The translations under genes were made by a program, and so were the position numbers. A model generated the notes under the pieces. It was not told where the DNA came from and did no database searches. It saw only the letters and a list, made by a program, of their open reading frames with translations. From Escherichia coli (GTDB taxonomy: Bacteria; Pseudomonadota; Gammaproteobacteria; Enterobacterales; Enterobacteriaceae), in the NCBI RefSeq assembly GCF_003018115.1, contig NZ_CP027457.1: DNA of 64,000 nucleotides; one strand, 5' to 3'. The first letter of the stretch is position 1, and every line of letters begins with the position of its first letter. Below are positions 1,065-57,922 of the stretch, piece by piece.

Positions 1065-2759
1065 ATGTCAGATCAACTTCAAATGACAGATGGTATGCAT
1101 ATCATCGTTGAAGCATTAAAACAGAATAATATTGACACTATTTATGGTGTTGTAGGTATTCCTGTGACGGATATGGCACGCCATGCCCAGGCGGAAGGCA
1201 TTCGTTATATTGGTTTTCGTCATGAGCAGTCGGCAGGCTATGCCGCTGCGGCAAGCGGTTTTCTTACCCAAAAACCGGGGATCTGCCTGACAGTTTCTGC
1301 GCCAGGATTCCTCAATGGTTTGACCGCATTGGCCAACGCAACGGTAAATGGTTTTCCGATGATCATGATTAGCGGCTCCAGCGACCGCGCGATCGTCGAC
1401 CTACAGCAAGGTGATTATGAAGAGCTGGACCAAATGAATGCGGCAAAACCGTATGCCAAAGCAGCATTTCGCGTTAATCAGCCGCAGGATCTTGGCATTG
1501 CATTGGCACGCGCTATCCGGGTCTCCGTATCGGGTCGCCCTGGCGGAGTTTATCTTGATTTGCCAGCAAATGTCCTGGCCGCGACGATGGAAAAAGACGA
1601 AGCGTTAACCACGATTGTAAAAGTTGAAAATCCGTCGCCAGCATTATTGCCATGCCCGAAGTCAGTCGCTAGCGCAATTTCGCTTTTAGCAAAAGCTGAA
1701 CGACCATTAGTTATCCTTGGCAAAGGCGCGGCGTATTCACAAGCTGACGAACAGCTTCGTGAATTTATTGAAAGTGCCCAGATTCCATTCCTGCCAATGT
1801 CTATGGCGAAAGGGATCCTCGAAGATACGCATCCACTTTCTGCAGCAGCTGCGCGTTCGTTTGCCCTGGCAAATGCTGACGTTGTCATGCTTGTTGGTGC
1901 ACGACTGAATTGGTTACTGGCACACGGTAAAAAAGGATGGGCGGCAGATACACAGTTTATTCAACTGGATATTGAACCGCAGGAAATTGACAGCAACCGC
2001 CCTATTGCTGTGCCAGTCGTTGGCGATATTGCATCCAGTATGCAAGGTATGCTGGCAGAGCTGAAACAAAACACATTTACGACTCCACTGGTATGGCGCG
2101 ATATTTTAAATATCCACAAGCAGCAAAATGCACAAAAAATGCATGAAAAATTAAGTACAGATACCCAACCATTAAATTACTTTAATGCATTAAGTGCTGT
2201 GCGCGATGTATTGCGTGAGAACCAGGATATTTATTTAGTTAATGAAGGTGCAAATACCCTGGATAATGCACGAAATATTATTGATATGTATAAACCACGT
2301 CGTCGTCTGGATTGTGGTACCTGGGGTGTCATGGGCATCGGTATGGGCTATGCCATCGGTGCTAGCGTGACCTCTGGTTCTCCGGTTGTCGCCATTGAAG
2401 GTGATAGTGCTTTTGGTTTCAGTGGGATGGAGATTGAAACGATTTGTCGATATAACCTGCCGGTGACGATCGTTATTTTTAATAATGGCGGCATCTACAG
2501 AGGAGACGGTGTTGATCTCAGTGGCGCTGGTGCACCATCACCAACGGATCTGTTGCACCATGCAAGGTATGACAAATTAATGGATGCGTTTCGTGGCGTT
2601 GGCTATAACGTCACCACGACAGATGAACTTCGTCATGCTTTAACCACCGGTATTCAGTCGCGCAAACCGACCATTATTAATGTGGTCATCGACCCTGCAG
2701 CAGGAACTGAAAGTGGCCATATTACCAAACTTAACCCAAAACAAGTCGCTGGTAATTAA
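1065..2759 (+). CDS. oxc: Oxalyl-CoA decarboxylase (TPP-dependent)
   Basis: 564-aa ORF, ATG with upstream GAGG RBS; TPP-enzyme motifs; synteny frc-oxc-yfdV-yfdE. Confidence 0.93.
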   Translation: MSDQLQMTDGMHIIVEALKQNNIDTIYGVVGIPVTDMARHAQAEGIRYIGFRHEQSAGYAAAASGFLTQKPGICLTVSAPGFLNGLTALANATVNGFPMIMISGSSDRAIVDLQQGDYEELDQMNAAKPYAKAAFRVNQPQDLGIALARAIRVSVSGRPGGVYLDLPANVLAATMEKDEALTTIVKVENPSPALLPCPKSVASAISLLAKAERPLVILGKGAAYSQADEQLREFIESAQIPFLPMSMAKGILEDTHPLSAAAARSFALANADVVMLVGARLNWLLAHGKKGWAADTQFIQLDIEPQEIDSNRPIAVPVVGDIASSMQGMLAELKQNTFTTPLVWRDILNIHKQQNAQKMHEKLSTDTQPLNYFNALSAVRDVLRENQDIYLVNEGANTLDNARNIIDMYKPRRRLDCGTWGVMGIGMGYAIGASVTSGSPVVAIEGDSAFGFSGMEIETICRYNLPVTIVIFNNGGIYRGDGVDLSGAGAPSPTDLLHHARYDKLMDAFRGVGYNVTTTDELRHALTTGIQSRKPTIINVVIDPAAGTESGHITKLNPKQVAGN

Positions 2760-2828
2760 ATACTGACATCGTCTCCTCTTGCCAACTCATTATGCGATGG
2801 TGAGGGGACCCTTATCGGAAATACTATT

Positions 2829-3773
2829 ATGCTAACATTTTTTATTGGCGATTTATTGCCTATTATCGTAATCATGCTGTTGGGTTATTTTAGCGGCAGA
2901 CGAGAAACTTTTTCAGAAGATCAAGCCCGGGCATTTAATAAACTGGTATTAAACTACGCGCTTCCTGCAGCCCTATTTGTTTCTATTACCCGGGCAAACA
3001 GGGAAATGATTTTTGCGGACACTCGTCTGACCCTTGTATCACTCGTGGTTATTGTCGGATGTTTCTTTTTCTCCTGGTTCGGTTGCTACAAATTTTTTAA
3101 ACGTACTCATGCAGAAGCAGCTGTATGTGCATTAATTGCAGGTTCACCTACCATTGGATTCCTGGGGTTTGCAGTTCTCGATCCTATTTATGGTGATTCC
3201 GTATCAACAGGTTTAGTGGTAGCAATTATTTCTATTATTGTTAACGCAATTACTATTCCTATTGGTCTGTATTTGCTGAATCCTTCCTCAGGAGCGGATG
3301 GTAAGAAGAATAGTAATCTGAGCGCATTAATTTCTGCGGCAAAGGAGCCAGTTGTATGGGCACCTGTTCTGGCAACGATCCTGGTGTTGGTTGGGGTAAA
3401 AATTCCGGCAGCATGGGACCCAACCTTTAATCTGATTGCGAAGGCTAACTCAGGGGTAGCGGTATTCGCTGCGGGGTTGACTCTGGCTGCACATAAATTC
3501 GAGTTCAGTGCCGAAATTGCTTATAACACCTTCCTGAAGCTGATTCTGATGCCACTGGCACTGCTTCTCGTTGGTATGGCATGTCATTTGAACAGCGAAC
3601 ATCTGCAGATGATGGTACTGGCAGGCGCATTACCGCCGGCATTCTCCGGAATCATTATTGCCAGCCGGTTTAATGTCTACACCCGTACTGGTACAGCGTC
3701 ATTGGCTGTGAGCGTACTGGGTTTTGTCGTCACGGCTCCCTTGTGGATTTATGTCAGTCGACTGGTTTCATAA
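2829..3773 (+). CDS. yfdV: AEC-family membrane transporter (putative oxalate/formate-related)
   Basis: 314-aa highly hydrophobic ORF; position between oxc and yfdE. Confidence 0.85.
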
Positions 3774-3801
3774 TTAATCATGTTATTGATTTTACATAAA
3801 T

Positions 3802-3834
3802 GCCGAAGTGTCTTTTCACCTTCGGCTTTTTTCA
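3802..3834 (+). terminator. Rho-independent terminator after yfdV
   Basis: GC stem gccgaag..cttcggc followed by TTTTTT. Confidence 0.6.
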
Positions 3835-3846
3835 AGGCATAAGCAA

Positions 3847-4992
3847 ATGACAAATAATGAAAGCAAAGGGCCGTTTGAAGGCTTATTAGTTATCGATATG
3901 ACACATGTCCTTAATGGACCTTTCGGAACTCAACTTCTTTGTAATATGGGCGCACGGGTAATTAAAGTTGAGCCGCCGGGCCATGGTGATGATACCCGCA
4001 CATTTGGTCCCTATGTGGATGGACAGTCACTCTATTACAGTTTTATTAATCATGGCAAAGAGAGTGTGGTTCTTGATTTAAAGAATGATCACGATAAAAG
4101 TATATTTATAAATATGCTTAAACAAGCTGATGTATTAGCTGAGAATTTTCGCCCAGGTACAATGGAAAAACTAGGGTTTTCATGGGAAAGGTTACAAGAA
4201 ATCAACCCGCGCCTCATATATGCTTCATCGTCAGGTTTCGGACATACCGGTCCGCTAAAAGATGCTCCTGCCTACGATACCATCATTCAGGCAATGAGCG
4301 GGATAATGATGGAAACAGGGTACCCTGATGCTCCGCCAGTGCGTGTTGGTACCTCTCTTGCGGATCTATGCGGCGGTGTTTATTTATTCAGCGGAATAGT
4401 GAGTGCACTTTATGGCCGCGAAAAGAGCCAAAGAGGGGCGCATGTCGATATAGCGATGTTTGATGCCACGCTGAGTTTTCTGGAGCATGGTCTGATGGCA
4501 TATATTGCGACAGGGAAGTCACCACAACGCCTGGGAAATCGCCATCCCTACATGGCACCTTTTGATGTTTTCGATACTCAGGATAAGCCGATTACGATTT
4601 GTTGTGGTAATGACAAGCTTTTTTCTGCGTTATGCCAGGCACTGGAGCTTACGGAACTGGTTAATGATCCCAGATTTAGCAGCAATATTTTACGCGTACA
4701 AAACCAGGCTATTCTTAAACAATATATTGAGCGGACGTTAAAAACGCAGGCAGCTGAAGTTTGGTTAGCCAAAATACATGAAGTCGGTGTGCCCGTAGCG
4801 CCGTTATTAAGTGTGGCTGAGGCCATTAATTTGCCACAAACTCAGGCGAGAAATATGTTGATTGAAGCCGGAGGAATAATGATGCCGGGTAATCCGATAA
4901 AAATCAGCGGCTGCGCGGACCCGCATGTTATGCCGGGAGCGGCAACGCTCGACCAGCATGGGGAACAAATTCGCCAGGAGTTCTCATCATAA
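3847..4992 (+). CDS. yfdE: Acetyl-CoA:oxalate CoA-transferase (type III CoA-transferase family)
   Basis: ORF-track frame 3808..4992; start placed at internal ATG (MTNNESKG...) downstream of the terminator; paralogous to frc. Confidence 0.88.
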   Translation: MTNNESKGPFEGLLVIDMTHVLNGPFGTQLLCNMGARVIKVEPPGHGDDTRTFGPYVDGQSLYYSFINHGKESVVLDLKNDHDKSIFINMLKQADVLAENFRPGTMEKLGFSWERLQEINPRLIYASSSGFGHTGPLKDAPAYDTIIQAMSGIMMETGYPDAPPVRVGTSLADLCGGVYLFSGIVSALYGREKSQRGAHVDIAMFDATLSFLEHGLMAYIATGKSPQRLGNRHPYMAPFDVFDTQDKPITICCGNDKLFSALCQALELTELVNDPRFSSNILRVQNQAILKQYIERTLKTQAAEVWLAKIHEVGVPVAPLLSVAEAINLPQTQARNMLIEAGGIMMPGNPIKISGCADPHVMPGAATLDQHGEQIRQEFSS

Positions 4993-5014
4993 ATGTAAGA
5001 TGTGCTGGTAAATA

Positions 5015-5040
5015 GCTCCCACATTTGAACATTGTGGGAG
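5015..5040. other. Hairpin between convergent yfdE and evgS (possible bidirectional terminator)
   Basis: Inverted repeat ctcccaca..tgtgggag; weak flanking T/A runs. Confidence 0.3.
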
Positions 5041-5047
5041 CCACTAT

Positions 5048-8000
5048 TTAGTTATTTTGTTGACAGAAAACAGCAATCTCCTGGTCCAGCTCTGCAATGT
5101 GTTCTTTTACAGAGTTCAGCAACTGAAGAATTTCAGGCTTACTGTCATCTGAAACAGGTGTTATTTCTAACTGATGGCTAATATTAATCAACTTTTGCAA
5201 ATTCAGGATGTTAGCCGCACCGTGGATGCGATGAATACACTGATGGAAAGTTCTATTATCGCCAGCTTCTAGTGCATGAAACGCAGCGGATAAATCTTTA
5301 TGTGTTTCATGCTGGAAAGTCATGAGAATCTCCTGCATCAGTTGTAGATCGTTCGCCGTATTATTTTTCAGGGCCTCGATATCAAGGTGGCGATACTGAG
5401 GTACAATATGCGCAACCTGGTGTAACTGACTTAAATGTGTTTTCAGTACATCCAGGGTCAACGGTTTGAACAAACATAAGTTCATGCCGCAATTTAACCC
5501 TTTTTCACGTTCGTTAGCCTGTGCGTTGGCTGTAAGCCCCCAGATGGGTAAGGACGAATTTTGCTCACGGAGTTTGCGAGTCAACTCAAAACCATCCATA
5601 TTCGGCATATTAACGTCAGTAATAAGCAGATCATAATGTTGCATACTGACTTTGTGTAGCGCTTGCACACCATCAGTGGCTTCGTCAACATCATATCCTA
5701 ATAGATTTAGCTGGCGTTTGAGTAATAGCCTGTTGGTCGGATGATCATCCGCGATTAATATGCTCAACTTTTCAGGTAGTGTGATAGGTTGTTCTGCTTT
5801 TGCCTCGACAGCCGCCACTTGTTGGGTAATTTCTACCGGGATTGTGATCGTAAATGTTGTTCCTATGCCTGGATGACTTTCTAATGACAAATCACCCTGC
5901 ATGTTTTTAATTAATTCTTTGCAGATCATTAAGCCTAAACCAGAACCTGTTTGCTGACGACCTGCACTTGTTTGGCTATAACGTTTAAACAGTTGTTGTT
6001 GTTCTTCCTGTGATAATCCACTTCCAGAATCCATAATCGTCATTTTGATTACAGCGTGGTTGTCATCAATGTGACCCAGGGAGGTCGTAATTTTTACTGC
6101 CCCCTCGGTGGTAAATTTGAGAGCATTACTCAGTAAATTTGATAAGACCTGCTTAAACGCCTGAGGGTCGATCTTAACTAGGTAATGTTCAGGAAACGTA
6201 CTGCTGCAACTTAATGCGATCGATTTGCTTGCAGCAATCGCACCGAAAGAGTGACAAGTGTTCTGGACTAAAGTAGGAATATCGACCCATTGTGGTTGAA
6301 GTTGATAGTTACCCGATTCAATTTTGTCGACATCAAGGATTTCACCAATTAAGCCGAGGAGTGATTGTCCGGTGGCGTAGGCAAGTGAAATCGCCTCCAC
6401 CCGTTGTTCCTTGCTAAGACCAGAACCCGACAGAAGTTCCAGGAAGCCCATAATAGAGCTTATTGGTGTTCTTATTTCGTGACTCATCGTTGCCAGAAAC
6501 TGACTTTTTGCTACGGTAGCCTTTATCGCTTTATTTTTTTCTACCTCGAGTGCATTAATTAGATCACGCGTTTCAGTAATATCTTGCCAACCACAAATAT
6601 ATACTGCATTGTCACTTGCAGGAAGATTGCATAATGTATGCCAGTGATTAATGCATCTTTTCTCGATGCCATTATCAATTTCAAATACCTGTGTGTATAT
6701 TGTTCGGTTTTCTTTCGTCTCTGCTGTGACTTCATGCGTATTAGAAAAAACATCTTTAAAGGGTGATTCACTGTTTTCTAATGGCAACATTGCATTTTTG
6801 TAGTAATCAGCAGTGAAATAATGTTCAAATGCACTATTGTGACTAATGACATTACCTTGCCAGTTTACAACATAAGTTGGATTCGGTAAGGAGTCCGAGA
6901 GCGCTTTCCGGAATGATATTTGGTTTTCTAAATCACCCTGAATGACTTTACGACGACGAACTGAGCGTAACAGGTAGAATCCCCATAAAAGGCTACTGCC
7001 AACTAATAAAACGGATAATGTCGTAACAATATAAAATTGCTCGCTATAGAGGTCCCATGTGTCAATGGTCACATTGGGCATTTTAATCCATTTTTCCGTC
7101 AGGCGCAGAACTTCGCTTGGGGGGATTGCATTCAGTGCTTTATTAATAATATCCTTAAGTTCCGGTTCTCCGCGAGGAAAAGCGAACGAAAGCGATGCAT
7201 TCGGAACGCCGGGAATAAGAAAATGATAAAGTTCATTAGGATAGTAATGGTCGATCATGTAACGCGAATTTAGCTGTGTCGCGACCAGAGCATCAAGTTC
7301 ACCTTCCTTGACCTTGTGAAATGCAGCGCTGGCGTTATCGACTTTTATCCACTCTACCTCCGGATACATCTCTTTTAATTGCGAATGCAGCTCATAATAA
7401 TATGGAATGGCAACTTTCATTCCTTTTTTTAATGTTTGTTCACTGTCAGGCGCTTTTTGCATGACAAAAACGTAAGGCGTTGTTATGAAGGCTTCAGCAA
7501 ATAAAACATTATTTTCTCTATCTTCACTATAAATAGCACCGGGTAATATATCCCATCCGCCGGGATTCAGCTGTGTTCCGGCATGGATATTGTGTGAAAC
7601 GGTGATCGGAGAAAAATTTAAACCTGTTTGCAAGGTAATAATATTAAGAATGTCCCCCATAACGCCCCGAACCGAGCCATTTTCATCCGTCATAGAATAG
7701 GGGGGCGAGTAAGGATTTTCCAGCACCTTTAAATCGGGATGCTGCTTAATCCACTGTTTTTCATGTTCAGTGAGTTCTAATGGCTTGTTCAGAAAGGCTA
7801 GGTTTCCTGTATCAAGCCAATTTTGTGATACTTCATAGCGAACTTCATTTGTTAAAGCATCAACAAATCGATTGAGTACTTCATTAAGAATGACAGATTC
7901 TTTTCTGGTTAAGAAGAAGTTATATTGACGCGGTGAGTTATAATATTTCACTACATTTAAGGAGTGAGTGAAATAGCGGGAAATCATACTGCTGGTAATG

Positions 8001-8641
8001 ATGTTACTACCAATAAAGTAATCATTCTGTCCGGCTGAGACGGATGCTAATGCCTGATATAAATTTGTAAAAGAGATAATTGTTGCTTTTGGAAATGATT
8101 GATGAATTATCTCGTCAGGGGGATAATTTGCTACTCGAGCAATATTTACTGGTTTTGATGAGGTAAGCGGTCGCATTGAATCGTGAAGGGTGGTGACCAG
8201 CGCCGGAAAGGTAATTATCAGTGGTTTGGTTGCAGCAATGTCATCATTAAGAGGCGGCGAAGCAACTAAATGTGATAACACTATATCGACTTCACCTTCT
8301 TCCAGCGCGTCCATTGCTTTTTGATGATCGGCGTATTCCCGGAGTGTTAATTTGATATTTAACGCTCTTTTTAAAAGATTTAAATAATCAGCATTAATAC
8401 CACGAACCCGTTGCTGCGAATCGGTATGCAACAACGTAGCCGTTTGGGACTTATGTACTGCAATCACAAGATTTTTTTTGCTCGCTAACCAACGTAATTC
8501 CTTGTTGCTCAGACGTAGTGGATCAAGTGTGACACGGTTGTTACTACTGATGCCACGATATTCGATGTAATCTTCGTCTGCGAAACTTATGGTCGACCAA
8601 AGACCACAACAGAGAAGAAAAATATAGGGTAAAAACTTCAT
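5048..8641 (-). CDS. evgS: Hybrid sensor histidine kinase EvgS (periplasmic binding-protein-like domains, HisKA/HATPase, receiver, HPt)
   Basis: 1197-aa ORF; H-box SHEIRTP, receiver domain with DVNMPNMDG, C-terminal HPt; 2 bp downstream of evgA. Confidence 0.95.
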   Translation of the reverse strand: MKFLPYIFLLCCGLWSTISFADEDYIEYRGISSNNRVTLDPLRLSNKELRWLASKKNLVIAVHKSQTATLLHTDSQQRVRGINADYLNLLKRALNIKLTLREYADHQKAMDALEEGEVDIVLSHLVASPPLNDDIAATKPLIITFPALVTTLHDSMRPLTSSKPVNIARVANYPPDEIIHQSFPKATIISFTNLYQALASVSAGQNDYFIGSNIITSSMISRYFTHSLNVVKYYNSPRQYNFFLTRKESVILNEVLNRFVDALTNEVRYEVSQNWLDTGNLAFLNKPLELTEHEKQWIKQHPDLKVLENPYSPPYSMTDENGSVRGVMGDILNIITLQTGLNFSPITVSHNIHAGTQLNPGGWDILPGAIYSEDRENNVLFAEAFITTPYVFVMQKAPDSEQTLKKGMKVAIPYYYELHSQLKEMYPEVEWIKVDNASAAFHKVKEGELDALVATQLNSRYMIDHYYPNELYHFLIPGVPNASLSFAFPRGEPELKDIINKALNAIPPSEVLRLTEKWIKMPNVTIDTWDLYSEQFYIVTTLSVLLVGSSLLWGFYLLRSVRRRKVIQGDLENQISFRKALSDSLPNPTYVVNWQGNVISHNSAFEHYFTADYYKNAMLPLENSESPFKDVFSNTHEVTAETKENRTIYTQVFEIDNGIEKRCINHWHTLCNLPASDNAVYICGWQDITETRDLINALEVEKNKAIKATVAKSQFLATMSHEIRTPISSIMGFLELLSGSGLSKEQRVEAISLAYATGQSLLGLIGEILDVDKIESGNYQLQPQWVDIPTLVQNTCHSFGAIAASKSIALSCSSTFPEHYLVKIDPQAFKQVLSNLLSNALKFTTEGAVKITTSLGHIDDNHAVIKMTIMDSGSGLSQEEQQQLFKRYSQTSAGRQQTGSGLGLMICKELIKNMQGDLSLESHPGIGTTFTITIPVEITQQVAAVEAKAEQPITLPEKLSILIADDHPTNRLLLKRQLNLLGYDVDEATDGVQALHKVSMQHYDLLITDVNMPNMDGFELTRKLREQNSSLPIWGLTANAQANEREKGLNCGMNLCLFKPLTLDVLKTHLSQLHQVAHIVPQYRHLDIEALKNNTANDLQLMQEILMTFQHETHKDLSAAFHALEAGDNRTFHQCIHRIHGAANILNLQKLINISHQLEITPVSDDSKPEILQLLNSVKEHIAELDQEIAVFCQQNN

Positions 8642-8645
8642 GTGG

Positions 8646-9260
8646 TTAGCCGATTTTGTTACGTTGTGCGAATGTGTAAAGATCCATCAGTGATTTACAT
8701 TCTAATTTTTCCATCAGGCGACTTTTATAAGTGCTGACAGTTTTGTTGCTGATGAACATTTTTTCAGCAATGTCATTATTATCCTTGCCATCAAGAATAT
8801 AGCGCATGACACTAATTTCTTGTTTCGATAAGGAGTCGAGTTTTTGCTGGTCGGACGTTAAACTTCCAACAAACCGGTTGAGAGAGAAGGGGAAATAGCA
8901 GTAGCCATTTTTTGCAGCTTCAATAGCCGCAATGATATTGTTCATGCCTTCTTTTTTACTCACGAAACCATTAGCGCCAGCATCAGCACAATGTTTCCCG
9001 TAAAAATGGTCATTTTTAGCGGAAACGATAATAATAATTCCGCTATATTGACGCTTTCTCAGCGTTTCTAACACCTGGATACCGTTAACTCCGGGGATAT
9101 CGACATCAATGATGACGATATCAGGCTTAAGTGTTTCCACCCGCTGAACGGCACTTCCGCCTTCAGTCAACTCTGCTAAGATTTCAATATCGTTTTTGAT
9201 CAATAAATTACGAATTGCTGCGATAGCAAGAGGATGGTCATCAATAATTATTGCGTTCAT
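8646..9260 (-). CDS. evgA: Response regulator EvgA (receiver + LuxR-type HTH)
   Basis: 204-aa ORF starting MNAIIIDDHPLA; operon with evgS. Confidence 0.95.
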   Translation of the reverse strand: MNAIIIDDHPLAIAAIRNLLIKNDIEILAELTEGGSAVQRVETLKPDIVIIDVDIPGVNGIQVLETLRKRQYSGIIIIVSAKNDHFYGKHCADAGANGFVSKKEGMNNIIAAIEAAKNGYCYFPFSLNRFVGSLTSDQQKLDSLSKQEISVMRYILDGKDNNDIAEKMFISNKTVSTYKSRLMEKLECKSLMDLYTFAQRNKIG

Positions 9261-9484
9261 AGATTATTCCCTTTGCAATGAAGCATCTCCCTTCTCCCTG
9301 TAGTAATACAGACATAAGGCATCATCTCATTTTCTCAATAAAAATAAGAAAATTTGAGCTTCCTTTAAGATAATTCGACAAGTATACCATATAAATAGTC
9401 GGCATATATGAAATGTCAACAATAAAATCAGGGATTGTACCGATGATTTATAGTTTCACATTAGCACTATAAGTCTTCTCACTA

Positions 9485-9502
9485 ATCCTACAGGCGTAAG
9501 AA
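9485..9502. promoter_or_regulatory. Putative EvgA box in evgA-emrK divergent intergenic region
   Basis: atcctacaggcgtaagaa matches inverted-repeat consensus TTCYTACA-N2-TGTARGAA at most positions. Confidence 0.5.
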
Positions 9503-9675
9503 TTGTATTGCAAAAGCCACGGTTTAGTCCTCTGTTGTTTTTTTTGCACCTCATTTAAATTAGGCCTCCAACGTTCCTGGGATAATGTGCAACACATGCA
9601 CTGTGTTTGATATGAAGAATGAATACTCTTTTCATTCAATTCATAAATTTCATCTATGCGAAATGAGAGATAATA

Positions 9676-10839
9676 GTGGAACAGATTAATTCAAATAAAA
9701 AACATTCTAACAGAAGAAAATACTTTTCTTTATTGGCGATAGTTTTATTTATTGCGTTTTCAGGTGCTTATGCCTATTGGTCAATGGAATTAGAAGACAT
9801 GATTAGTACAGATGACGCCTATGTCACGGGGAATGCAGATCTAATTTCTGCACAAGTCTCAGGTAGTGTCACTGTAGTTAATCATAAAGATACGAACTAC
9901 GTTCGACAGGGTGACATTTTAGTTTCACTGGATAAAACTGATGCCACTATCGCACTCAATAAAGCTAAAAATAATCTGGCAAATATTGTTCGGCAAACGA
10001 ATAAACTGTACTTACAGGATAAACAATACAGTGCCGAAGTCGCTTCAGCACGTATTCAGTATCAACAATCTTTAGAAGATTATAACCGTCGTGTGCCTTT
10101 AGCGAAGCAGGGGGTTATTTCAAAAGAAACGCTGGAGCATACCAAAGATACGTTAATAAGTAGCAAAGCGGCATTGAATGCCGCTATCCAGGCTTATAAA
10201 GCGAATAAAGCTTTAGTAATGAACACACCATTAAACCGTCAGCCACAAGTCGTTGAAGCGGCGGATGCAACTAAAGAAGCCTGGTTGGCGCTTAAACGTA
10301 CGGATATTAAGAGTCCGGTTACCGGCTATATTGCCCAGAGAAGTGTTCAGGTCGGCGAAACAGTGAGCCCCGGACAATCGTTAATGGCTGTCGTACCGGC
10401 ACGTCAAATGTGGGTTAATGCCAACTTTAAAGAAACACAACTCACAGATGTACGGATTGGTCAATCGGTCAATATTATCAGCGATCTTTATGGTGAGAAT
10501 GTTGTGTTTCATGGCCGGGTGACAGGGATCAATATGGGAACCGGCAATGCGTTCTCCTTATTACCTGCACAAAATGCGACAGGGAACTGGATCAAAATCG
10601 TTCAGCGTGTACCGGTTGAAGTTTCTCTTGATCCAAAAGAACTCATGGAACACCCCTTGCGCATTGGTTTATCGATGACTGCAACTATTGATACGAAGAA
10701 CGAAGACATTGCTGAGATGCCTGAGCTGGCTTCAACCGTGACGTCCATGCCGGCTTATACCAGTAAGGCTTTAGTTATCGATACCAGTCCGATAGAAAAA
10801 GAAATTAGCAACATTATTTCGCATAATGGACAACTTTAA
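9676..10839 (+). CDS. emrK: Multidrug efflux membrane fusion protein EmrK
   Basis: 387-aa ORF, N-terminal TM anchor then coiled-coil/HlyD-like region; 1-nt overlap with emrY. Confidence 0.92.
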   Translation: MEQINSNKKHSNRRKYFSLLAIVLFIAFSGAYAYWSMELEDMISTDDAYVTGNADLISAQVSGSVTVVNHKDTNYVRQGDILVSLDKTDATIALNKAKNNLANIVRQTNKLYLQDKQYSAEVASARIQYQQSLEDYNRRVPLAKQGVISKETLEHTKDTLISSKAALNAAIQAYKANKALVMNTPLNRQPQVVEAADATKEAWLALKRTDIKSPVTGYIAQRSVQVGETVSPGQSLMAVVPARQMWVNANFKETQLTDVRIGQSVNIISDLYGENVVFHGRVTGINMGTGNAFSLLPAQNATGNWIKIVQRVPVEVSLDPKELMEHPLRIGLSMTATIDTKNEDIAEMPELASTVTSMPAYTSKALVIDTSPIEKEISNIISHNGQL

Positions 10840-12377
10840 TGGCAATCACTAAATCAACTCCGGCACCATTAACCGGTGGGACGTTATGGTGCGTCACTAT
10901 TGCATTGTCATTAGCGACGTTTATGCAAATGTTGGATTCCACTATTTCTAACGTCGCAATACCGACAATATCTGGCTTTCTGGGAGCATCAACAGACGAA
11001 GGCACCTGGGTTATCACCTCGTTTGGCGTAGCAAATGCCATTGCGATCCCTGTTACCGGCAGGCTGGCACAAAGAATAGGCGAATTAAGGTTATTTTTAC
11101 TTTCAGTCACTTTTTTTTCGCTGTCTTCCTTAATGTGTAGTTTATCGACCAATCTTGATGTGCTGATATTTTTTAGAGTCGTTCAGGGGTTAATGGCAGG
11201 GCCGTTAATTCCACTGTCACAGAGTTTATTATTAAGGAATTATCCACCAGAAAAAAGAACATTTGCTCTGGCATTATGGTCAATGACCGTGATTATCGCT
11301 CCGATATGTGGGCCGATATTGGGCGGTTATATTTGTGATAACTTTAGCTGGGGTTGGATATTTTTAATCAATGTCCCTATGGGTATTATCGTCCTGACAT
11401 TATGCTTAACCTTACTTAAAGGAAGAGAAACTGAGACTTCACCGGTCAAAATGAATCTACCAGGACTGACCCTGTTAGTGCTCGGTGTTGGTGGCTTGCA
11501 AATTATGCTTGATAAAGGGCGCGATCTGGATTGGTTCAACTCGAGTACAATAATAATATTAACAGTAGTATCAGTTATTTCTCTGATCTCTTTAGTCATT
11601 TGGGAGTCGACCTCAGAGAACCCGATTCTTGATCTCAGTTTGTTTAAGTCCCGTAACTTCACTATTGGTATTGTGAGTATCACATGCGCGTATTTATTTT
11701 ACTCTGGAGCGATCGTCCTTATGCCGCAGTTACTCCAGGAAACGATGGGGTATAATGCGATATGGGCCGGACTTGCTTATGCGCCCATCGGCATCATGCC
11801 ACTATTAATTTCACCTTTGATAGGACGTTATGGCAACAAAATAGACATGCGGTTGTTAGTGACATTTAGTTTTTTGATGTATGCGGTTTGCTATTACTGG
11901 CGTTCTGTGACATTTATGCCAACGATTGATTTTACAGGCATCATTTTGCCACAGTTTTTCCAGGGATTCGCCGTTGCCTGTTTCTTTTTACCCTTAACAA
12001 CGATTTCGTTTTCAGGGTTGCCAGATAATAAATTTGCCAATGCCTCGAGTATGAGTAATTTTTTTCGTACCTTGTCAGGATCAGTTGGTACATCGTTGAC
12101 AATGACGCTGTGGGGGCGACGCGAATCGTTACACCATAGTCAGTTGACAGCAACCATCGATCAATTTAACCCTGTGTTTAATTCATCGTCACAAATTATG
12201 GATAAATACTATGGTTCGCTTTCAGGAGTTCTTAATGAAATTAATAATGAAATAACCCAGCAGTCACTTTCTATTTCTGCAAATGAGATTTTCCGTATGG
12301 CGGCTATTGCTTTTATCTTACTTACGGTTTTGGTTTGGTTTGCGAAACCGCCGTTTACAGCGAAAGGCGTTGGGTGA
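10839..12377 (+). CDS. emrY: MFS multidrug efflux pump EmrY (14-TMS, EmrB family)
   Basis: 512-aa hydrophobic ORF translationally coupled to emrK. Confidence 0.92.
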   Translation: MAITKSTPAPLTGGTLWCVTIALSLATFMQMLDSTISNVAIPTISGFLGASTDEGTWVITSFGVANAIAIPVTGRLAQRIGELRLFLLSVTFFSLSSLMCSLSTNLDVLIFFRVVQGLMAGPLIPLSQSLLLRNYPPEKRTFALALWSMTVIIAPICGPILGGYICDNFSWGWIFLINVPMGIIVLTLCLTLLKGRETETSPVKMNLPGLTLLVLGVGGLQIMLDKGRDLDWFNSSTIIILTVVSVISLISLVIWESTSENPILDLSLFKSRNFTIGIVSITCAYLFYSGAIVLMPQLLQETMGYNAIWAGLAYAPIGIMPLLISPLIGRYGNKIDMRLLVTFSFLMYAVCYYWRSVTFMPTIDFTGIILPQFFQGFAVACFFLPLTTISFSGLPDNKFANASSMSNFFRTLSGSVGTSLTMTLWGRRESLHHSQLTATIDQFNPVFNSSSQIMDKYYGSLSGVLNEINNEITQQSLSISANEIFRMAAIAFILLTVLVWFAKPPFTAKGVG

Positions 12378-16943: not shown

Positions 16944-17858
16944 ATGTCAGCCAAAGTATGGGTTTTAGGGGATGCGGTAGTAGATCTCTTGCCAGAATCA
17001 GACGGGCGCCTACTGCCTTGTCCTGGCGGCGCGCCAGCTAACGTTGCGGTGGGAATCGCCAGATTAGGCGGAATAAGTGGGTTTATAGGTCGGGTCGGTG
17101 ATGATCCTTTTGGTGCGTTAATGCAAAGAACTCTGCTAACTGAGGGAGTCGATATCACGTATCTGAAGCAAGATGAATGGCACCGGACATCCACGGTGCT
17201 TGTCGATCTGAACGATCAAGGGGAACGTTCATTTACGTTTATGGTTCGCCCCAGTGCCGATCTTTTTTTAGAGACGACAGACTTGCCCTGCTGGCGACAT
17301 GGCGAATGGTTACATCTCTGTTCAATTGCGTTGTCTGCCGAGCCTTCGCGTACCAGCGCATTTACTGCGATGACGGCGATCCGGCATGCCGGAGGTTTTG
17401 TCAGCTTCGATCCCAATATTCGTGAAGATCTATGGCAAGACGAGCATTTGCTCCGCTTGTGTTTGCGGCAGGCGCTACAACTGGCGGATGTCGTCAAACT
17501 CTCGGAAGAAGAATGGCGACTAATCAGTGGAAAAACACAGAACGATCGGGATATATGCGCCCTGGCAAAAGAGTATGAGATCGCCATGCTGTTGGTGACT
17601 AAAGGTGCAGAAGGGGTGGTGGTCTGTTATCGAGGACAAGTTCACCATTTTGCTGGAATGTCTGTGAATTGTGTCGATAGCACGGGGGCGGGAGATGCGT
17701 TCGTTGCCGGGTTACTCACAGGTCTGTCCTCTACGGGATTATCTACAGATGAGAGAGAAATGCGACGAATTATCGATCTCGCTCAACGTTGCGGAGCGCT
17801 TGCAGTAACGGCGAAAGGGGCAATGACAGCGCTGCCATGTCGACAAGAACTGGAATAG
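16944..17858 (+). CDS. cscK: Fructokinase CscK (PfkB/ribokinase family)
   Basis: 304-aa ORF with PfkB signature DSTGAGDAF; between cscA and cscB. Confidence 0.88.
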   Translation: MSAKVWVLGDAVVDLLPESDGRLLPCPGGAPANVAVGIARLGGISGFIGRVGDDPFGALMQRTLLTEGVDITYLKQDEWHRTSTVLVDLNDQGERSFTFMVRPSADLFLETTDLPCWRHGEWLHLCSIALSAEPSRTSAFTAMTAIRHAGGFVSFDPNIREDLWQDEHLLRLCLRQALQLADVVKLSEEEWRLISGKTQNDRDICALAKEYEIAMLLVTKGAEGVVVCYRGQVHHFAGMSVNCVDSTGAGDAFVAGLLTGLSSTGLSTDEREMRRIIDLAQRCGALAVTAKGAMTALPCRQELE

Positions 17859-17929
17859 TGAGAAGTAAACGGCGAAGTCGCTCTTATCTCTAAATAGGAC
17901 GTGAATTTTTTAACGACAGGCAGGTAATT

Positions 17930-19177
17930 ATGGCACTGAATATCCCATTCAGAAATGCGTACTATCGTTTTGCATCCAGTTACTCATTTCTCTTTTTTAT
18001 TTCCTGGTCGCTGTGGTGGTCGTTATACGCTATTTGGCTGAAAGGACATCTAGGGTTGACAGGGACGGAATTAGGTACACTTTATTCGGTCAACCAGTTT
18101 ACCAGCATTCTATTTATGATGTTCTACGGCATCGTTCAGGATAAACTCGGTCTGAAGAAACCACTCATCTGGTGTATGAGTTTCATCCTGGTCTTGACCG
18201 GACCGTTTATGATTTACGTTTATGAACCGTTACTGCAAAGCAATTTTTCTGTAGGTCTAATTCTGGGGGCGCTCTTTTTTGGCTTGGGGTATCTGGCGGG
18301 ATGCGGTTTGCTTGACAGCTTCACCGAAAAAATGGCGCGAAATTTTCATTTCGAATATGGAACAGCGCGCGCCTGGGGATCTTTTGGCTATGCTATTGGC
18401 GCGTTCTTTGCCGGCATATTTTTTAGTATCAATCCCCATATCAACTTCTGGTTGGTCTCGCTATTTGGCGCTGTATTTATGATGATCAACATGCGTTTTA
18501 AAGATAAGGATCACCAGTGCGTAGCGGCGGATGCGGGAGGGGTAAAAAAAGAGGATTTTATCGCAGTTTTCAAGGATCGAAACTTCTGGGTTTTCGTCAT
18601 ATTTATTGTGGGGACGTGGTCTTTCTATAACATTTTTGATCAACAACTTTTTCCTGTCTTTTATGCAGGTTTATTCGAATCACACGATGTAGGAACGCGC
18701 CTGTATGGTTATCTCAACTCATTCCAGGTGGTACTCGAAGCAGTGTGCATGGCGATTATTCCTTTCTTTGTGAATCGGGTAGGGCCAAAAAATGCATTAC
18801 TTATCGGTGTTGTGATTATGGCGTTGCGTATCCTTTCCTGCGCGCTGTTCGTTAACCCCTGGATTATTTCATTAGTGAAGCTGTTACATGCCATTGAGGT
18901 TCCACTTTGTGTCATATCCGTCTTCAAATACAGCGTGGCAAACTTTGATAAGCGCCTGTCGTCGACGATCTTTCTGATTGGTTTTCAAATTGCCAGTTCG
19001 CTTGGGATTGTGCTGCTTTCAACGCCGACTGGGATACTCTTTGACCACGCAGGCTACCAGACAGTTTTCTTCGCAATTTCGGGTATTGTCTGCCTGATGT
19101 TGCTATTTGGCATTTTCTTCCTGAGTAAAAAACGCGAGCAAATAGTTATGGAAACGCCTGTACCTTCAGCAATATAG
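17930..19177 (+). CDS. cscB: Sucrose:H+ symporter CscB (MFS, oligosaccharide:H+ symporter family)
   Basis: 415-aa 12-TMS ORF MALNIPFRNAYYRFASSYSF...; LacY-like. Confidence 0.9.
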   Translation: MALNIPFRNAYYRFASSYSFLFFISWSLWWSLYAIWLKGHLGLTGTELGTLYSVNQFTSILFMMFYGIVQDKLGLKKPLIWCMSFILVLTGPFMIYVYEPLLQSNFSVGLILGALFFGLGYLAGCGLLDSFTEKMARNFHFEYGTARAWGSFGYAIGAFFAGIFFSINPHINFWLVSLFGAVFMMINMRFKDKDHQCVAADAGGVKKEDFIAVFKDRNFWVFVIFIVGTWSFYNIFDQQLFPVFYAGLFESHDVGTRLYGYLNSFQVVLEAVCMAIIPFFVNRVGPKNALLIGVVIMALRILSCALFVNPWIISLVKLLHAIEVPLCVISVFKYSVANFDKRLSSTIFLIGFQIASSLGIVLLSTPTGILFDHAGYQTVFFAISGIVCLMLLFGIFFLSKKREQIVMETPVPSAI

Positions 19178-19185
19178 ACGTAAAC

Positions 19186-19230
19186 TTTTTCCGGTTGTTG
19201 TCGATATCTCCATATCCCTCAACCGGAAAA
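19186..19230 (+). terminator. Long inverted repeat downstream of cscB (possible terminator or island/IS junction structure)
   Basis: 11-bp stem ttttccggttg / caaccggaaaa with a 22-nt loop; no clean U-run. Confidence 0.35.
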
Positions 19231-19239
19231 TAATAATAG

Positions 19240-19420
19240 TAAAATGCTTAGCCCTGGTGACTGCTCCCCGCCCTGTCGGGCGAGGCTTCCCACTTCTTAA
19301 GCTGCAACCGTCTGTGTGACGGATTTACGCTGGCCTCCATGGGCAGAAACGACGAGTCCCGCCGCTTGTAATTCCAGTATGCCCTTGCGTTTGATGTTGA
19401 GCGCCGCGTTGATATCGCGG
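19240..19420 (-). ncRNA. Putative TnpB-associated omega RNA (reRNA) at tnpB 3-prime end and IS right end
   Basis: Inferred from the architecture of IS200/IS605 TnpB systems; subterminal hairpin ccccgccc-tgtc-gggcgagg at 19266-19285, 12 nt past the tnpB stop; exact boundaries not determinable by eye. Confidence 0.3.
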
Positions 19421-20466
19421 TCATGTTCAACTCCACACTCTGGACACTGCCAGATGCGCTTATGTAATGGCATCTCCGACATTTTGTGACCGCAGCAGTG
19501 GCAGATTTTCGAACTGGCGAACCATTGATCCAGTTTCACCAGATGCACACCTTTCTCTGTTGCTTTGTATTCCAGTTTTGTGATGAATCCAGACCATCCA
19601 GCATCGCCTATCGCACGAGCCAGATGGTGATTTTTCATCATATTTGCCGTTTTCAATGTCTCGACAATTACCGCTTGGTTTTCGTCAACAATTGCGCGAG
19701 ATAACTTGTGCTGGAAATCGGCACGGGCACTGGCTACCCGTTCGTGAACGGCTGCAAGTTGTATTCTGGCTTTGCGCCTGTTTGCGCTCCCTTTTTTCTT
19801 ACGGGACAGTGCTTTCTGCTTCCGGCGAAGGTTGCGACTTGCATTGATTAGGTGGCGGGGACTGGCAATTTTATTGCCGTCCGATTTGATGACAAAATGC
19901 GCCAGCCCCATATCCAGCCCTGTCACATTTGATATCAGTGCGGGCTTTGCCGGCGCTTCCATCCCGTCGTCACAGAGTAACGACGCGTAGTATTTCCCGG
20001 TTGCGCTGCGGCTCAACGTGATACTTTTCAGCATTCCCGTAATTTCACGATGTAAACGCGCTTCAATCGGCAAGATTTTCGGTATTTTTATCGCACCATC
20101 AAGGACTTTTATGCCAACACAATGATAGCTCGATTGTCTGCCGTGTTTACTTTTAAAGGTAGGTTTACCTGCTTTCAGTTTCGGATTGAAAAAGTTAGAA
20201 AAAGCCACGTCGAGGTTAATTACCGCCTGCTGCAACGCAATAGAATCATATTCTTTAAGCCATCCATACCGGCGGGATTTCTTCGCCACTGCAAGCAGTG
20301 GTTTGAGGTCTTTACGCGGGTTTAAATTTACGCGGTGCCGCTGGTAAGAATGTTTCTTGATATGCAGAGCTTTGTTGTACGCAAAACGCACTGCACCGAA
20401 CTGGGCGTTGATAAATTCAGCCTGTTCTGGTGTCGGGTAGATGCGTACTTTTGTTGCTCTTAACAT
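19297..20466 (-). CDS. tnpB: TnpB (OrfB) RNA-guided endonuclease-like protein, RuvC-like with zinc finger
   Basis: 389-aa ORF; RuvC-I GLDMGL, RuvC-II VIVETLK, Zn finger CHCCGHK..CPECG, RuvC-III HDRDINAALNI. Confidence 0.9.
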   Translation of the reverse strand: MLRATKVRIYPTPEQAEFINAQFGAVRFAYNKALHIKKHSYQRHRVNLNPRKDLKPLLAVAKKSRRYGWLKEYDSIALQQAVINLDVAFSNFFNPKLKAGKPTFKSKHGRQSSYHCVGIKVLDGAIKIPKILPIEARLHREITGMLKSITLSRSATGKYYASLLCDDGMEAPAKPALISNVTGLDMGLAHFVIKSDGNKIASPRHLINASRNLRRKQKALSRKKKGSANRRKARIQLAAVHERVASARADFQHKLSRAIVDENQAVIVETLKTANMMKNHHLARAIGDAGWSGFITKLEYKATEKGVHLVKLDQWFASSKICHCCGHKMSEMPLHKRIWQCPECGVEHDRDINAALNIKRKGILELQAAGLVVSAHGGQRKSVTQTVAA

Positions 20467-20522
20467 AATCAGCGCTCATTGATATAATTCTTTTATTTTA
20501 ACGCTTTAGGTGAATATATCAA

Positions 20523-20948
20523 TTGAGTAATCATGATGATTTACTGGCGGGATTTCTCCGCAAACGACACAGTGTCAGTAAGCTGGTTGTGCACCTTATT
20601 TTTACGACAAAGTATCGACGCAAACTATTCGACAGTCAGATGATCGCTCAGTTGCGTGAGGCTTTTGGCTCCGCTGCGGCAAAGCTTGAATGCGAAATTA
20701 TTGAGATGGACGGGGAGCCAGACCATGTACACCTGCTGGTTGCCTACCCGCCAAAACTGGCGGTCAGTGTGATGGTCAATAATTTAAAATCGGTATCATC
20801 ACGTTTGCTACGCCAGCAGAACGCGCATTTACGTATGCAGAGTAAAACGGGGCTTTTGTGGTCGAGATCGTACTTTGTCTGTAGCACCGGAGGGGCAACG
20901 ATTGAAACGCTCAGAGCCTACGTTCAGAGTCAGTCAACACCTGATTGA
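20523..20948 (+). CDS. tnpA: IS200-type Y1 (HUH) transposase TnpA
   Basis: HUH motif HVHLL and catalytic Tyr region SYFVCSTGGA; annotated frame begins at TTG so true start uncertain; hairpin terminator at 20954-20973. Confidence 0.85.
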   Translation: MSNHDDLLAGFLRKRHSVSKLVVHLIFTTKYRRKLFDSQMIAQLREAFGSAAAKLECEIIEMDGEPDHVHLLVAYPPKLAVSVMVNNLKSVSSRLLRQQNAHLRMQSKTGLLWSRSYFVCSTGGATIETLRAYVQSQSTPD

Positions 20949-21018
20949 TCTTTAAAGCCCTGCGGGCTTTTCGCCTTATATCCCCGCCCGCATTGGGCGA
21001 GGGTTTACGGCGTTTTTC

Positions 21019-46480: not shown

Positions 46481-47701
46481 ATGAAACGTGCAGTGATTAC
46501 TGGCCTGGGCATTGTTTCCAGCATCGGTAATAACCAGCAGGAAGTCCTGGCATCTCTGCGTGAAGGACGTTCAGGGATCACTTTCTCTCAGGAGCTGAAG
46601 GATTCCGGCATGCGTAGCCACGTCTGGGGCAACGTAAAACTGGATACCACTGGCCTCATTGACCGCAAAGTTGTGCGCTTTATGAGCGACGCATCCATTT
46701 ATGCATTCCTTTCTATGGAGCAGGCAATCGCAGATGCGGGCCTTTCTCCGGAAGCTTACCAGAATAACCCGCGCGTTGGCCTGATTGCAGGTTCCGGCGG
46801 CGGCTCCCCGCGTTTCCAGGTGTTCGGCGCTGACGCAATGCGCGGTCCGCGCGGCCTGAAAGCGGTTGGCCCATATGTGGTCACCAAAGCGATGGCATCC
46901 GGCGTTTCTGCCTGCCTCGCCACCCCGTTTAAAATTCATGGCGTTAACTACTCCATCAGCTCCGCGTGTGCGACTTCCGCACACTGTATCGGTAACGCAG
47001 TAGAGCAGATCCAACTGGGCAAACAGGACATCGTGTTTGCTGGCGGCGGCGAAGAGCTGTGCTGGGAAATGGCTTGCGAATTCGACGCAATGGGTGCGCT
47101 GTCTACTAAATACAACGACACCCCGGAAAAAGCCTCCCGTACTTACGACGCTCACCGTGACGGTTTCGTTATCGCTGGCGGCGGCGGTATGGTAGTGGTT
47201 GAAGAGCTGGAACACGCGCTGGCGCGTGGTGCTCACATCTATGCTGAAATCGTTGGCTACGGCGCAACGTCTGATGGCGCAGACATGGTTGCTCCGTCTG
47301 GCGAAGGTGCAGTACGTTGTATGCAGATGGCGATGCATGGCGTTGATACCCCAATCGATTACCTGAACTCCCACGGCACTTCGACTCCGGTTGGCGACGT
47401 GAAAGAGCTGGCAGCTATCCGTGAAGTGTTCGGCGATAAGAGCCCGGCGATCTCTGCAACCAAAGCCATGACCGGTCACTCTCTGGGCGCTGCTGGCGTA
47501 CAGGAAGCTATCTACTCTCTGCTGATGCTGGAACACGGCTTTATCGCCCCGAGCATCAACATTGAAGAGCTGGACGAGCAGGCTGCGGGTCTGAACATCG
47601 TGACCGAAACGACCGATCGCGAACTGACCACTGTTATGTCTAACAGCTTCGGCTTCGGCGGCACCAACGCCACGCTGGTAATGCGCAAGCTGAAAGATTA
47701 A
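46481..47701 (+). CDS. fabB: 3-oxoacyl-ACP synthase I (KAS I)
   Basis: 406-aa ORF with active-site Cys region [10 protein letters not shown]. Confidence 0.96.
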
Positions 47702-55162: not shown

Positions 55163-56431
55163 ATGATTATCAAACGCACTCCTCAAGCCGCGTCGCCTCT
55201 GGCTTCGTGGCTTTCTTATCTGGAAAACCTGCACAGTAAAACTATCGATCTCGGCCTTGAGCGCGTGAGCCAGGTCGCGGCGCGTCTTGGCGTCCTGAAA
55301 CCAGCGCCATTTGTGTTTACCGTTGCGGGTACGAATGGCAAAGGCACCACCTGCCGTACGCTGGAGTCGATTCTGATGGCGGCAGGGTACAAAGTGGGCG
55401 TCTACAGTTCGCCTCATCTGGTGCGTTATACCGAGCGCGTACGTGTGCAGGGCCAGGAATTGCCGGAATCGGCCCACACCGCCTCTTTTGCGGAGATTGA
55501 ATCGGCACGCGGTGATATTTCCCTGACCTATTTCGAGTACGGTACGCTGTCGGCGTTGTGGCTGTTCAAGCAGGCACAACTTGACGTGGTGATTCTGGAA
55601 GTAGGGCTGGGCGGTCGTCTGGACGCAACCAATATTGTCGATGCCGATGTCGCGGTAGTAACCAGTATTGCGCTGGATCATACCGACTGGCTGGGTCCAG
55701 ATCGCGAAAGTATTGGTCGCGAGAAAGCAGGCATCTTCCGCAGCGAAAAACCGGCAATTGTCGGTGAGCCGGAAATGCCTTCTACCATTGCTGATGTGGC
55801 GCAGGAAAAAGGTGCACTGTTACAACGTCGGGGCGTTGAGTGGAACTATTCCGTCACCGATCATGACTGGGCGTTTAGCGATGCTCACGGCACGCTGGAA
55901 AACCTGCCGTTGCCGCTTGTCCCGCAACCGAATGCCGCAACGGCGCTGGCGGCACTGCGTGCCAGCGGGCTGGAGGTCAGTGAAAATGCCATTCGCGACG
56001 GGATTGCCAGCGCAATTTTGCCGGGACGTTTCCAGATTGTGAGCGAGTCGCCACGCGTTATTTTTGATGTCGCGCATAATCCACATGCGGCGGAATATCT
56101 CACCGGGCGTATGAAAGCGCTACCGAAAAACGGGCGCGTGCTGGCGGTTATCGGTATGCTACATGATAAAGATATTGCCGGAACTCTGGCCTGGTTGAAA
56201 AGCGTGGTTGATGACTGGTATTGTGCGCCACTGGAAGGGCCGCGCGGTGCCACGGCAGAACAACTGCTTGAGCATTTGGGTAACGGCAAATCATTTGATA
56301 GCGTTGCGCAGGCATGGGATGCCGCAATGGCGGACGCTAAAGCGGAAGACACCGTGCTGGTGTGTGGTTCTTTCCACACGGTCGCACATGTCATGGAAGT
56401 GATTGACGCGAGGAGAAGCGGTGGCAAGTAA
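55163..56431 (+). CDS. folC: Dihydrofolate synthase / folylpolyglutamate synthase
   Basis: 422-aa ORF with P-loop GTNGKGT. Confidence 0.93.
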   Translation: MIIKRTPQAASPLASWLSYLENLHSKTIDLGLERVSQVAARLGVLKPAPFVFTVAGTNGKGTTCRTLESILMAAGYKVGVYSSPHLVRYTERVRVQGQELPESAHTASFAEIESARGDISLTYFEYGTLSALWLFKQAQLDVVILEVGLGGRLDATNIVDADVAVVTSIALDHTDWLGPDRESIGREKAGIFRSEKPAIVGEPEMPSTIADVAQEKGALLQRRGVEWNYSVTDHDWAFSDAHGTLENLPLPLVPQPNAATALAALRASGLEVSENAIRDGIASAILPGRFQIVSESPRVIFDVAHNPHAAEYLTGRMKALPKNGRVLAVIGMLHDKDIAGTLAWLKSVVDDWYCAPLEGPRGATAEQLLEHLGNGKSFDSVAQAWDAAMADAKAEDTVLVCGSFHTVAHVMEVIDARRSGGK

Positions 56432-57083
56432 GTTTCAGAATCGGTTAGTGGGCACGATCGTGCTGGTGGCGCTGGGGGTGATTGTACTTCCAGGGCTGCT
56501 GGACGGGCAGAAAAAACATTATCAGGATGAGTTTGCGGCTATCCCGCTGGTTCCAAAAGCGGGCGATCGCGATGAGCCTGATATGATGCCAGCCGCCACC
56601 CAGGCGTTGCCGACGCAGCCGCCGGAAGGCGCAGCGGAAGAGGTGCGGGCAGGTGATGCCGCAGCACCGTCGCTCGATCCGGCCACTATTGCAGCCAATA
56701 ACACCGAGTTTGAACCGGAACCTGCACCGGTCGCCCCACCGAAGCCGAAACCGGTGGAGCCGCCTAAACCGAAGGTTGAAGCACCACCTGCGCCGAAGCC
56801 AGAACCGAAGCCGGTCGTGGAAGAAAAAGCTGCACCGACGGGTAAAGCCTATGTTGTGCAACTGGGGGCGCTGAAAAATGCCGATAAAGTGAATGAGATT
56901 GTCGGTAAGCTGCGCGGTGCCGGTTATCGGGTTTATACGTCGCCATCCACGCCAGTGCAGGGTAAAATTACCCGTATTCTGGTTGGGCCAGATGCCTCGA
57001 AAGATAAGCTGAAGGGATCGCTGGGTGAGTTGAAGCAACTTTCTGGCTTAAGTGGCGTGGTAATGGGCTATACGCCGAATTAA
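56421..57083 (+). CDS. dedD: Cell-division SPOR-domain protein DedD
   Basis: ORF-track frame 56403..57083; GTG start placed at (M)ASKFQNRLVG with RBS aggag; Pro/Lys-rich linker, C-terminal SPOR domain; overlaps folC end. Confidence 0.85.
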   Translation: MASKFQNRLVGTIVLVALGVIVLPGLLDGQKKHYQDEFAAIPLVPKAGDRDEPDMMPAATQALPTQPPEGAAEEVRAGDAAAPSLDPATIAANNTEFEPEPAPVAPPKPKPVEPPKPKVEAPPAPKPEPKPVVEEKAAPTGKAYVVQLGALKNADKVNEIVGKLRGAGYRVYTSPSTPVQGKITRILVGPDASKDKLKGSLGELKQLSGLSGVVMGYTPN

Positions 57084-57089
57084 TACGGT

Positions 57090-57245
<156 letters not shown>

Positions 57246-57325
57246 TGCCGCAAAGGCATAAAAAGTCGATGGCGTTGAATATTTTTTCAGCGCCATTTTT
57301 ATTGATGCGCGGGAAGGAAATCCCT

Positions 57326-57341
57326 ACGCAAACGTTTTCTT
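57326..57341. promoter_or_regulatory. PurR box upstream of cvpA-purF
   Basis: acgcaaacgttttctt matches PurR consensus ACGCAAACGTTTTCNT. Confidence 0.7.
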
Positions 57342-57397
57342 TTTCTGTTAGAATGCGCCCCGAACAGGATGACAGGGCGTAAAATCGTGGGACACAT

Positions 57398-57886
57398 ATG
57401 GTCTGGATTGATTACGCCATAATCGCGGTGATTGCTTTTTCCTCTCTGGTTAGCCTGATCCGCGGCTTTGTTCGTGAAGCGTTATCGCTGGTGACATGGG
57501 GGTGTGCTTTCTTTGTTGCCAGTCATTACTACACTTACCTGTCAGTCTGGTTTACGGGCTTTGAAGACGAACTGGTTCGAAATGGGATTGCCATCGCGGT
57601 ACTGTTTATCGCTACCCTGATCGTTGGTGCTATCGTGAACTTCGTGATAGGCCAGCTGGTGGAGAAAACGGGGTTGTCAGGCACCGATCGGGTGCTGGGC
57701 GTCTGTTTCGGTGCGTTGCGCGGTGTGTTGATTGTTGCTGCCATTCTCTTCTTTCTCGACTCCTTTACCGGGGTGTCGAAAAGCGAAGACTGGAGCAAAT
57801 CACAGCTGATCCCGCAGTTCAGTTTTATCATCAGATGGTTTTTTGATTATCTGCAAAGCTCGTCAAGTTTCTTGCCCAGAGCGTAA
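57398..57886 (+). CDS. cvpA: Colicin V production membrane protein CvpA
   Basis: 162-aa hydrophobic ORF immediately upstream of purF. Confidence 0.9.
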   Translation: MVWIDYAIIAVIAFSSLVSLIRGFVREALSLVTWGCAFFVASHYYTYLSVWFTGFEDELVRNGIAIAVLFIATLIVGAIVNFVIGQLVEKTGLSGTDRVLGVCFGALRGVLIVAAILFFLDSFTGVSKSEDWSKSQLIPQFSFIIRWFFDYLQSSSSFLPRA

Positions 57887-57922
57887 GTGCTCTGAGATGT
57901 GGCTTAACGAGGAAAAAGACGT

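Follow-up and report, generated by a model that had tools for sequence, protein, structure and literature searches.

The purine repressor PurR of Escherichia coli acts with hypoxanthine or guanine as corepressors (PMC6245113), and its sites in general mostly overlap the promoters under their control, as reviewed in the same paper. The PUR boxes of, among others, purT, purHD, purL, purMN, purC and purEK are 16-bp imperfect palindromes with a central CG and the common consensus ACGNAAACGTTTGCNT. These E. coli boxes usually overlap a promoter, as the cvpA-purF box does, while some other PUR sites act from unusual places, such as that of carAB at -128.5 or those that function as downstream roadblocks (PMC6245113).

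For the cvpA-purF-ubiX transcription unit, Table 1 of Cho et al. 2011 (PMC3159470) gives the PurR motif AAGAAAACGTTTGCGT at positions 2,428,842-2,428,857 of the MG1655 genome. The region is classed there as a "previously characterized" PurR-binding promoter region, and the in vivo ChIP-chip peak of PurR at cvpA-purF-ubiX was obtained solely with exogenous adenine. In electrophoretic mobility shift assays (EMSA), PurR shifts a cvpA-purF regulatory fragment extending from -171 to +56 (PMC5829826), and crystal structures of PurR in complex with the purF operator are cited in PMC6245113.

We analyzed a 64-kb stretch of E. coli DNA (hereafter, the window), in which the 16-mer ACGCAAACGTTTTCTT occupies positions 57326-57341 of the plus strand, 57 nt 5′ of the ATG of cvpA in the dedD-cvpA-purF-ubiX locus. 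The published motif AAGAAAACGTTTGCGT is the exact reverse complement of this 16-mer. In the MG1655 genome (NC_000913.3) the 16-mer is found once in the locus, with its proximal end at the same distance from the cvpA ATG, and the gene order is that of the window in reverse orientation. A sequence-only reading of the window had described the site as an almost perfect PurR operator standing before cvpA and had named the documented purF operator as the standard for comparison. The letters are as that reading gave them, the cvpA open reading frame does follow the box and is itself followed by purF and ubiX, and the documented operator is the very same site, at an equal distance from cvpA. The 16 bp, the distance to the ATG and the order of genes are thus all those of the E. 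coli K-12 purF operator (Makaroff and Zalkin 1985; Rolfes and Zalkin 1988; Cho et al. 2011). We conclude, with a probability of about 97%, that the sequence at 57326-57341 is the PurR operator of the E. coli cvpA-purF-ubiX operon. It is the archetypal PUR box of E. coli K-12 purF and, as such, already known, textbook biology; the occupancy of the box by PurR and its dependence on corepressor are documented in the literature on the identical sequence rather than for the strain that the window comes from.

The similarity to MG1655 extends beyond the box. The control region from approximately 57250 to the ATG is identical in the two strains, the flanking promoter sequence at 57250-57400 included, and the window strain differs from MG1655 upstream only, by three substitutions and an additional 56-nt REP/BIME unit, all in the spacer between dedD and cvpA. 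A 901-bp segment around the box has counterparts of 100% identity in several complete E. coli chromosomes, in which it is annotated as dedD, cvpA and purF.

We compared the box with the degenerate PurR consensus ANGMAAACGTTTKCNT and found no mismatches; this is the sole exact match on both strands of the 64-kb window. When aligned with the perfect palindrome ACGCAAACGTTTGCGT, the box agrees at 14 of 16 positions, with T replacing G at positions 13 and 15. The same two thymines distinguish it from the other E. coli PUR boxes, which have G there. The left half-site is that of the consensus and the right half-site carries both deviations, leaving six of eight half-site positions symmetric, which makes "almost perfect" an apt term for the box. 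The box therefore has the features by which the PUR-box class is recognized, that is, a 16-bp imperfect palindrome conforming to ACGNAAACGTTTGCNT or ANGMAAACGTTTKCNT with a central CpG.

Since the purF operator itself contributed to the consensus, a leave-out position weight matrix (PWM) was used as a safeguard against circularity. The matrix was derived from the 26 other PurR ChIP-chip motifs listed in Table 1 of Cho et al. 2011 (PMC3159470); the cvpA and fabB sites, both of which are located within the window, were withheld from the training set. The box scores 21.56 bits with this matrix, compared to 20.23 bits for the median training site, and the next position in the window, on either strand, reaches 11.05 bits. 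The top score across 200 windows simulated with a Markov-1 model was 21.10 bits. The PWM scan, which the sequence-only reading had proposed as a check on its own claim, thus bears that claim out.

One can ask whether the 16-mer merely resembles the PurR consensus by chance and has no regulatory role. When two or three mismatches are tolerated, approximately one match per 64 kb, i.e., one per window, is expected by chance, and searches run in this way do not discriminate an operator from a chance match. The match observed here is, in contrast, exact, and exact matches to ANGMAAACGTTTKCNT were present in none of 100 dinucleotide-preserving shuffles of the window. In addition, the box scores 10 bits above any other site in the window, lies in a promoter that serves the first gene of the purine pathway, does not vary over about 25 genera (see below) and coincides with a ChIP-chip peak. 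A chance resemblance is, in view of these data, extraordinarily improbable. The PWM scan of the window revealed no second PurR-like site above chance near the cvpA-purF-ubiX operon, and the operon is therefore a single-operator system.

Two further observations concern PurR-like sequences elsewhere in the window. The best non-operator score, 11.05 bits, is about two standard deviations under the mean maximum of the Markov-1 simulated windows (15.2 bits, standard deviation 1.8), which may mean that near-cognate PurR sites are depleted or may be an artefact created by the simple null model, and which pertains to one window only. Separately, Cho et al. 2011 (PMC3159470) give ACCAAAGCGATGGCAT as the motif for a weak PurR ChIP-chip peak designated "fabB-mnmC". 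This sequence is present at 46883-46898 of the window, approximately 400 nt into the coding sequence of fabB (46481-47701). It was considered as a second PurR operator and rejected, as its score of 10.3 bits falls within the background, or chance, range of the window and it lies inside the fabB open reading frame. The assignment of this motif to the "fabB-mnmC" peak looks doubtful.

The position of the box relative to the promoter can be read from published transcription start sites (TSS). Nuclease mapping placed the TSS of cvpA p1 at -37 from the start codon (Makaroff 1985; Nonet 1987), according to the tabulation in PMC2760140, and the DMTSS procedure placed it at -36 (PMC2760140). When converted to window coordinates, these positions correspond to 57361 and 57362 on the plus strand. 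Relative to the mapped TSS, the box spans positions -35 to -20 or -36 to -21, taking in the -35 region together with the greater part of the spacer. It thus stands in the regulatory region of a transcription unit for purine/nucleotide metabolism and overlaps the promoter, which is the typical situation for a PUR box.

Downstream of the box, on the same strand, there is a putative extended -10 element, TGTTAGAAT (57346-57354), composed of TG at 57346-57347 and, one base further, TAGAAT at 57349-57354. The hexamer occupies positions -12 to -7 or -13 to -8, being 7-8 nt 5′ of the published TSS, and this geometry points to its role as the -10 element. Candidate -35 hexamers match TTGACA at just one to three of six positions. 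The best of them, TACGCA at 57325-57330 (plus strand), has three matches and an 18-nt spacer; it would be a weak -35 element, nearly all of it within the operator. A generic σ70 promoter scan of the 57000-58000 region reported no promoter because the -35 element of this extended -10 promoter is poor; that there is no promoter in this region, as the blank scan might be taken to mean, is ruled out by the mapped TSS.

Regulation at this site would proceed as follows. When hypoxanthine or guanine is plentiful, PurR, a member of the LacI family whose gene lies outside the window, would bind its corepressor, and the corepressor-bound dimer would then bind the 16-bp imperfect palindrome at 57326-57341. 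Sitting at approximately -35 to -20 of a promoter with a weak -35 element and the extended -10 element TGTTAGAAT, PurR would keep RNA polymerase (RNAP) off, and with RNAP excluded, purF transcription would drop. Since the operator overlaps the -35 region, the geometry fits repression by blocking RNAP, and from the position of the operator over the promoter we infer that steric exclusion is the mechanism. As to the purine repression of cvpA-purF-ubiX that the earlier reading had put forward, it agrees with the published occupancy of the region by PurR in the presence of adenine, with the EMSA shift and with the way the box overlaps the promoter in its -35 region and spacer.

To follow the box in related bacteria, representative bacterial genomes were scanned for CvpA, which yielded 80 loci from about 25 genera of Enterobacteriaceae, including Escherichia, Salmonella, Citrobacter, Enterobacter, Klebsiella, Raoultella, Kosakonia, Buttiauxella and Cedecea. 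The sampled loci are all close relatives, with CvpA at least 90% identical. Enough upstream DNA was available for 79 loci, and in 78 of them the best PWM match in the 300 nt before cvpA was the identical 16-mer, located 70-75 nt before the cvpA ATG. The one other locus contained a single-substitution variant, ACGCAATCGTTTTCTT. Among the 66 distinct upstream sequences, the per-column identity to the window was 0.999 for the box and 0.997 for the extended -10 element, compared to 0.88-0.90 for the flanks. The longest near-invariant run comprised 39 columns (57316-57354). Runs of at least this length appeared in 0 of 20000 column permutations (the longest run was 9 columns on average and 25 at maximum), and in columns outside 57318-57354 approximately 12% of sequences differ from the window base. 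The box thus displays the phylogenetic footprint, i.e., conservation in front of orthologous genes, that is looked for in a PUR box, and the contrast between box and flanks (approximately 100% versus approximately 88%), drawn as it is among close relatives, is real but modest. Of 5425 complete E. coli genomes, 4336 share all 70 bp at 57300-57369 with the window, and three sampled E. coli variants differ solely at positions 57306 and 57310, both of which are upstream of the box.

LacI-family operators have a central CG and similar half-sites in common. The invariance of the block could, accordingly, come from another LacI-family regulator that recognizes a similar AAACGTTT core, or it could come from promoter function only, with the PurR match being incidental in either case. 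It is true that the box lies across the -35 region and spacer and that the conserved run continues through the -10 element, i.e., the conserved block also holds promoter elements. For this reason, conservation alone cannot tell whether the constraint stems from the operator or from the promoter; that distinction comes from the ChIP and EMSA data, as PurR is found on this region in vivo in an adenine-dependent manner (PMC3159470) and binds it in vitro (PMC5829826). Furthermore, with -35 candidates that match TTGACA at so few positions, contacts of RNAP alone do not account for 16 invariant positions. Finally, the PurR site predicted upstream of the same cvpA-purF pair in Haemophilus influenzae, AAGAAAACGTTTGCGT, is the same 16-mer (Sinha et al. 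2013, PMC3739930); this site, a computational prediction, is at -82 from the open reading frame versus -72 here. It is very improbable, then, that the block is conserved for reasons in which PurR has no part, and we retain the assignment of the box as the PurR operator.

The first gene downstream of the operator is cvpA (57398-57886, plus strand), which codes for the colicin V production protein and was identified by the NCBIfam equivalog NF008100 (338 bits) and by the RefSeq annotation of DNA with 100% identity. It is followed on the same strand by purF (57923-59440; TIGR01134 equivalog, 541.7 bits), coding for amidophosphoribosyltransferase, the enzyme of the first committed step of de novo purine synthesis, and by ubiX (59535-60104; UbiX family NF004685, 310 bits), coding for flavin prenyltransferase, as the third gene of the unit. 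A search of the cvpA leader against Rfam gave no RNA element. The cvpA-purF gap is 36 nt long and no terminator-like site was found in it; in the 94-nt purF-ubiX gap, neither a terminator-like nor a promoter-like site was found. In published in vitro run-off experiments the ratios for cvpA, purF and ubiX were similar (1.85, 2.12 and 1.90, respectively; PMC3141248). The terminator-free gaps together with the similar ratios are consistent with one cvpA-purF-ubiX transcription unit, which is how the three genes are listed by Cho et al. 2011 (PMC3159470). The operator could be real and yet repression be effectively confined to cvpA and purF, ubiX depending for the most part on signals of its own; the 94 nt that separate the end of purF at 59440 from the start of ubiX at 59535 leave room for such an arrangement. 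Given the lack of terminator-like and promoter-like sites in this gap, the published single transcription unit and the similar run-off ratios, we consider a separately expressed ubiX unlikely and treat all three genes as subject to the operator at 57326-57341.

Upstream of the control region lies dedD (56403-57083, plus strand), an open reading frame that, like those of cvpA, purF and ubiX, matches its NCBIfam equivalog or subfamily model well above the cut-off. The dedD unit is closed by an intrinsic-terminator-like hairpin with a T-run at 57268-57297 (plus strand), which is conserved across genera. The hairpin is located approximately 30 nt 5′ of the box, bounds the control region on its 5′ side and probably shields the cvpA promoter from transcription that runs on past dedD. 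The dedD-cvpA spacer contains, at 57087-57248, two 71-nt direct repeats of the REP/BIME type that are 90% identical to each other. The only Rfam match in the spacer, at 57111-57181, is to naRNA4, a REP-derived nucleoid-associated RNA family (73.5 bits). The 56 nt that are present in the window strain and absent from MG1655 amount to one extra REP/BIME unit. The BIME before cvpA was proposed as a possible attenuator (PMC2965389), and an in vitro run-off signal from the intergenic region upstream of cvpA was described as "transcribed in opposite direction" (PMC3141248). A consensus scan of the minus strand at 57260-57400 revealed no promoter-like site.

Far from the purF locus, the window contains a tRNA-Arg(CCT) gene (21462-21536, minus strand) and, beside it, a 141-amino-acid integrase remnant that consists of the Arm DNA-binding domain only (20911-21336, minus strand). 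An IS605-family OrfB/TnpB gene (19297-20466, minus strand), a gene for a LacY-family sugar symporter (17930-19177) and a gene for a PfkB sugar kinase (16944-17858) are found next to them, and the whole segment at 16944-21536 looks like a degraded integration hotspot with a sugar-utilization cassette. The GC content is 38-44% at 2001-12000 and at 24001-26000, compared to 52-55% where the window carries core genes, which suggests that the low-GC stretches are horizontally acquired DNA beyond that at the tRNA-Arg gene.

Returning to the operator, its two non-consensus thymines, T13 and T15, belong to the promoter-proximal half-site (GTTTTCTT versus GTTTGCGT) and are invariant over about 25 enterobacterial genera, and H. 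influenzae has the identical 16-mer. A tentative idea, which we regard as possible but on balance unlikely, is that the exact sequence of the box is under dual selection, having to work both as a PurR half-site whose affinity is tuned and as the T-rich spacer in an extended -10 promoter that has a poor -35 element. If true, this would mean that a "better" operator makes a worse promoter, a small refinement of a known system and not a new one. The value of the present finding is that of a positive control: a classic repressor-operator pair was recognized from raw sequence, and the published site, the promoter geometry and the conservation were all recovered at a locus where the first committed step of purine biosynthesis is under control.
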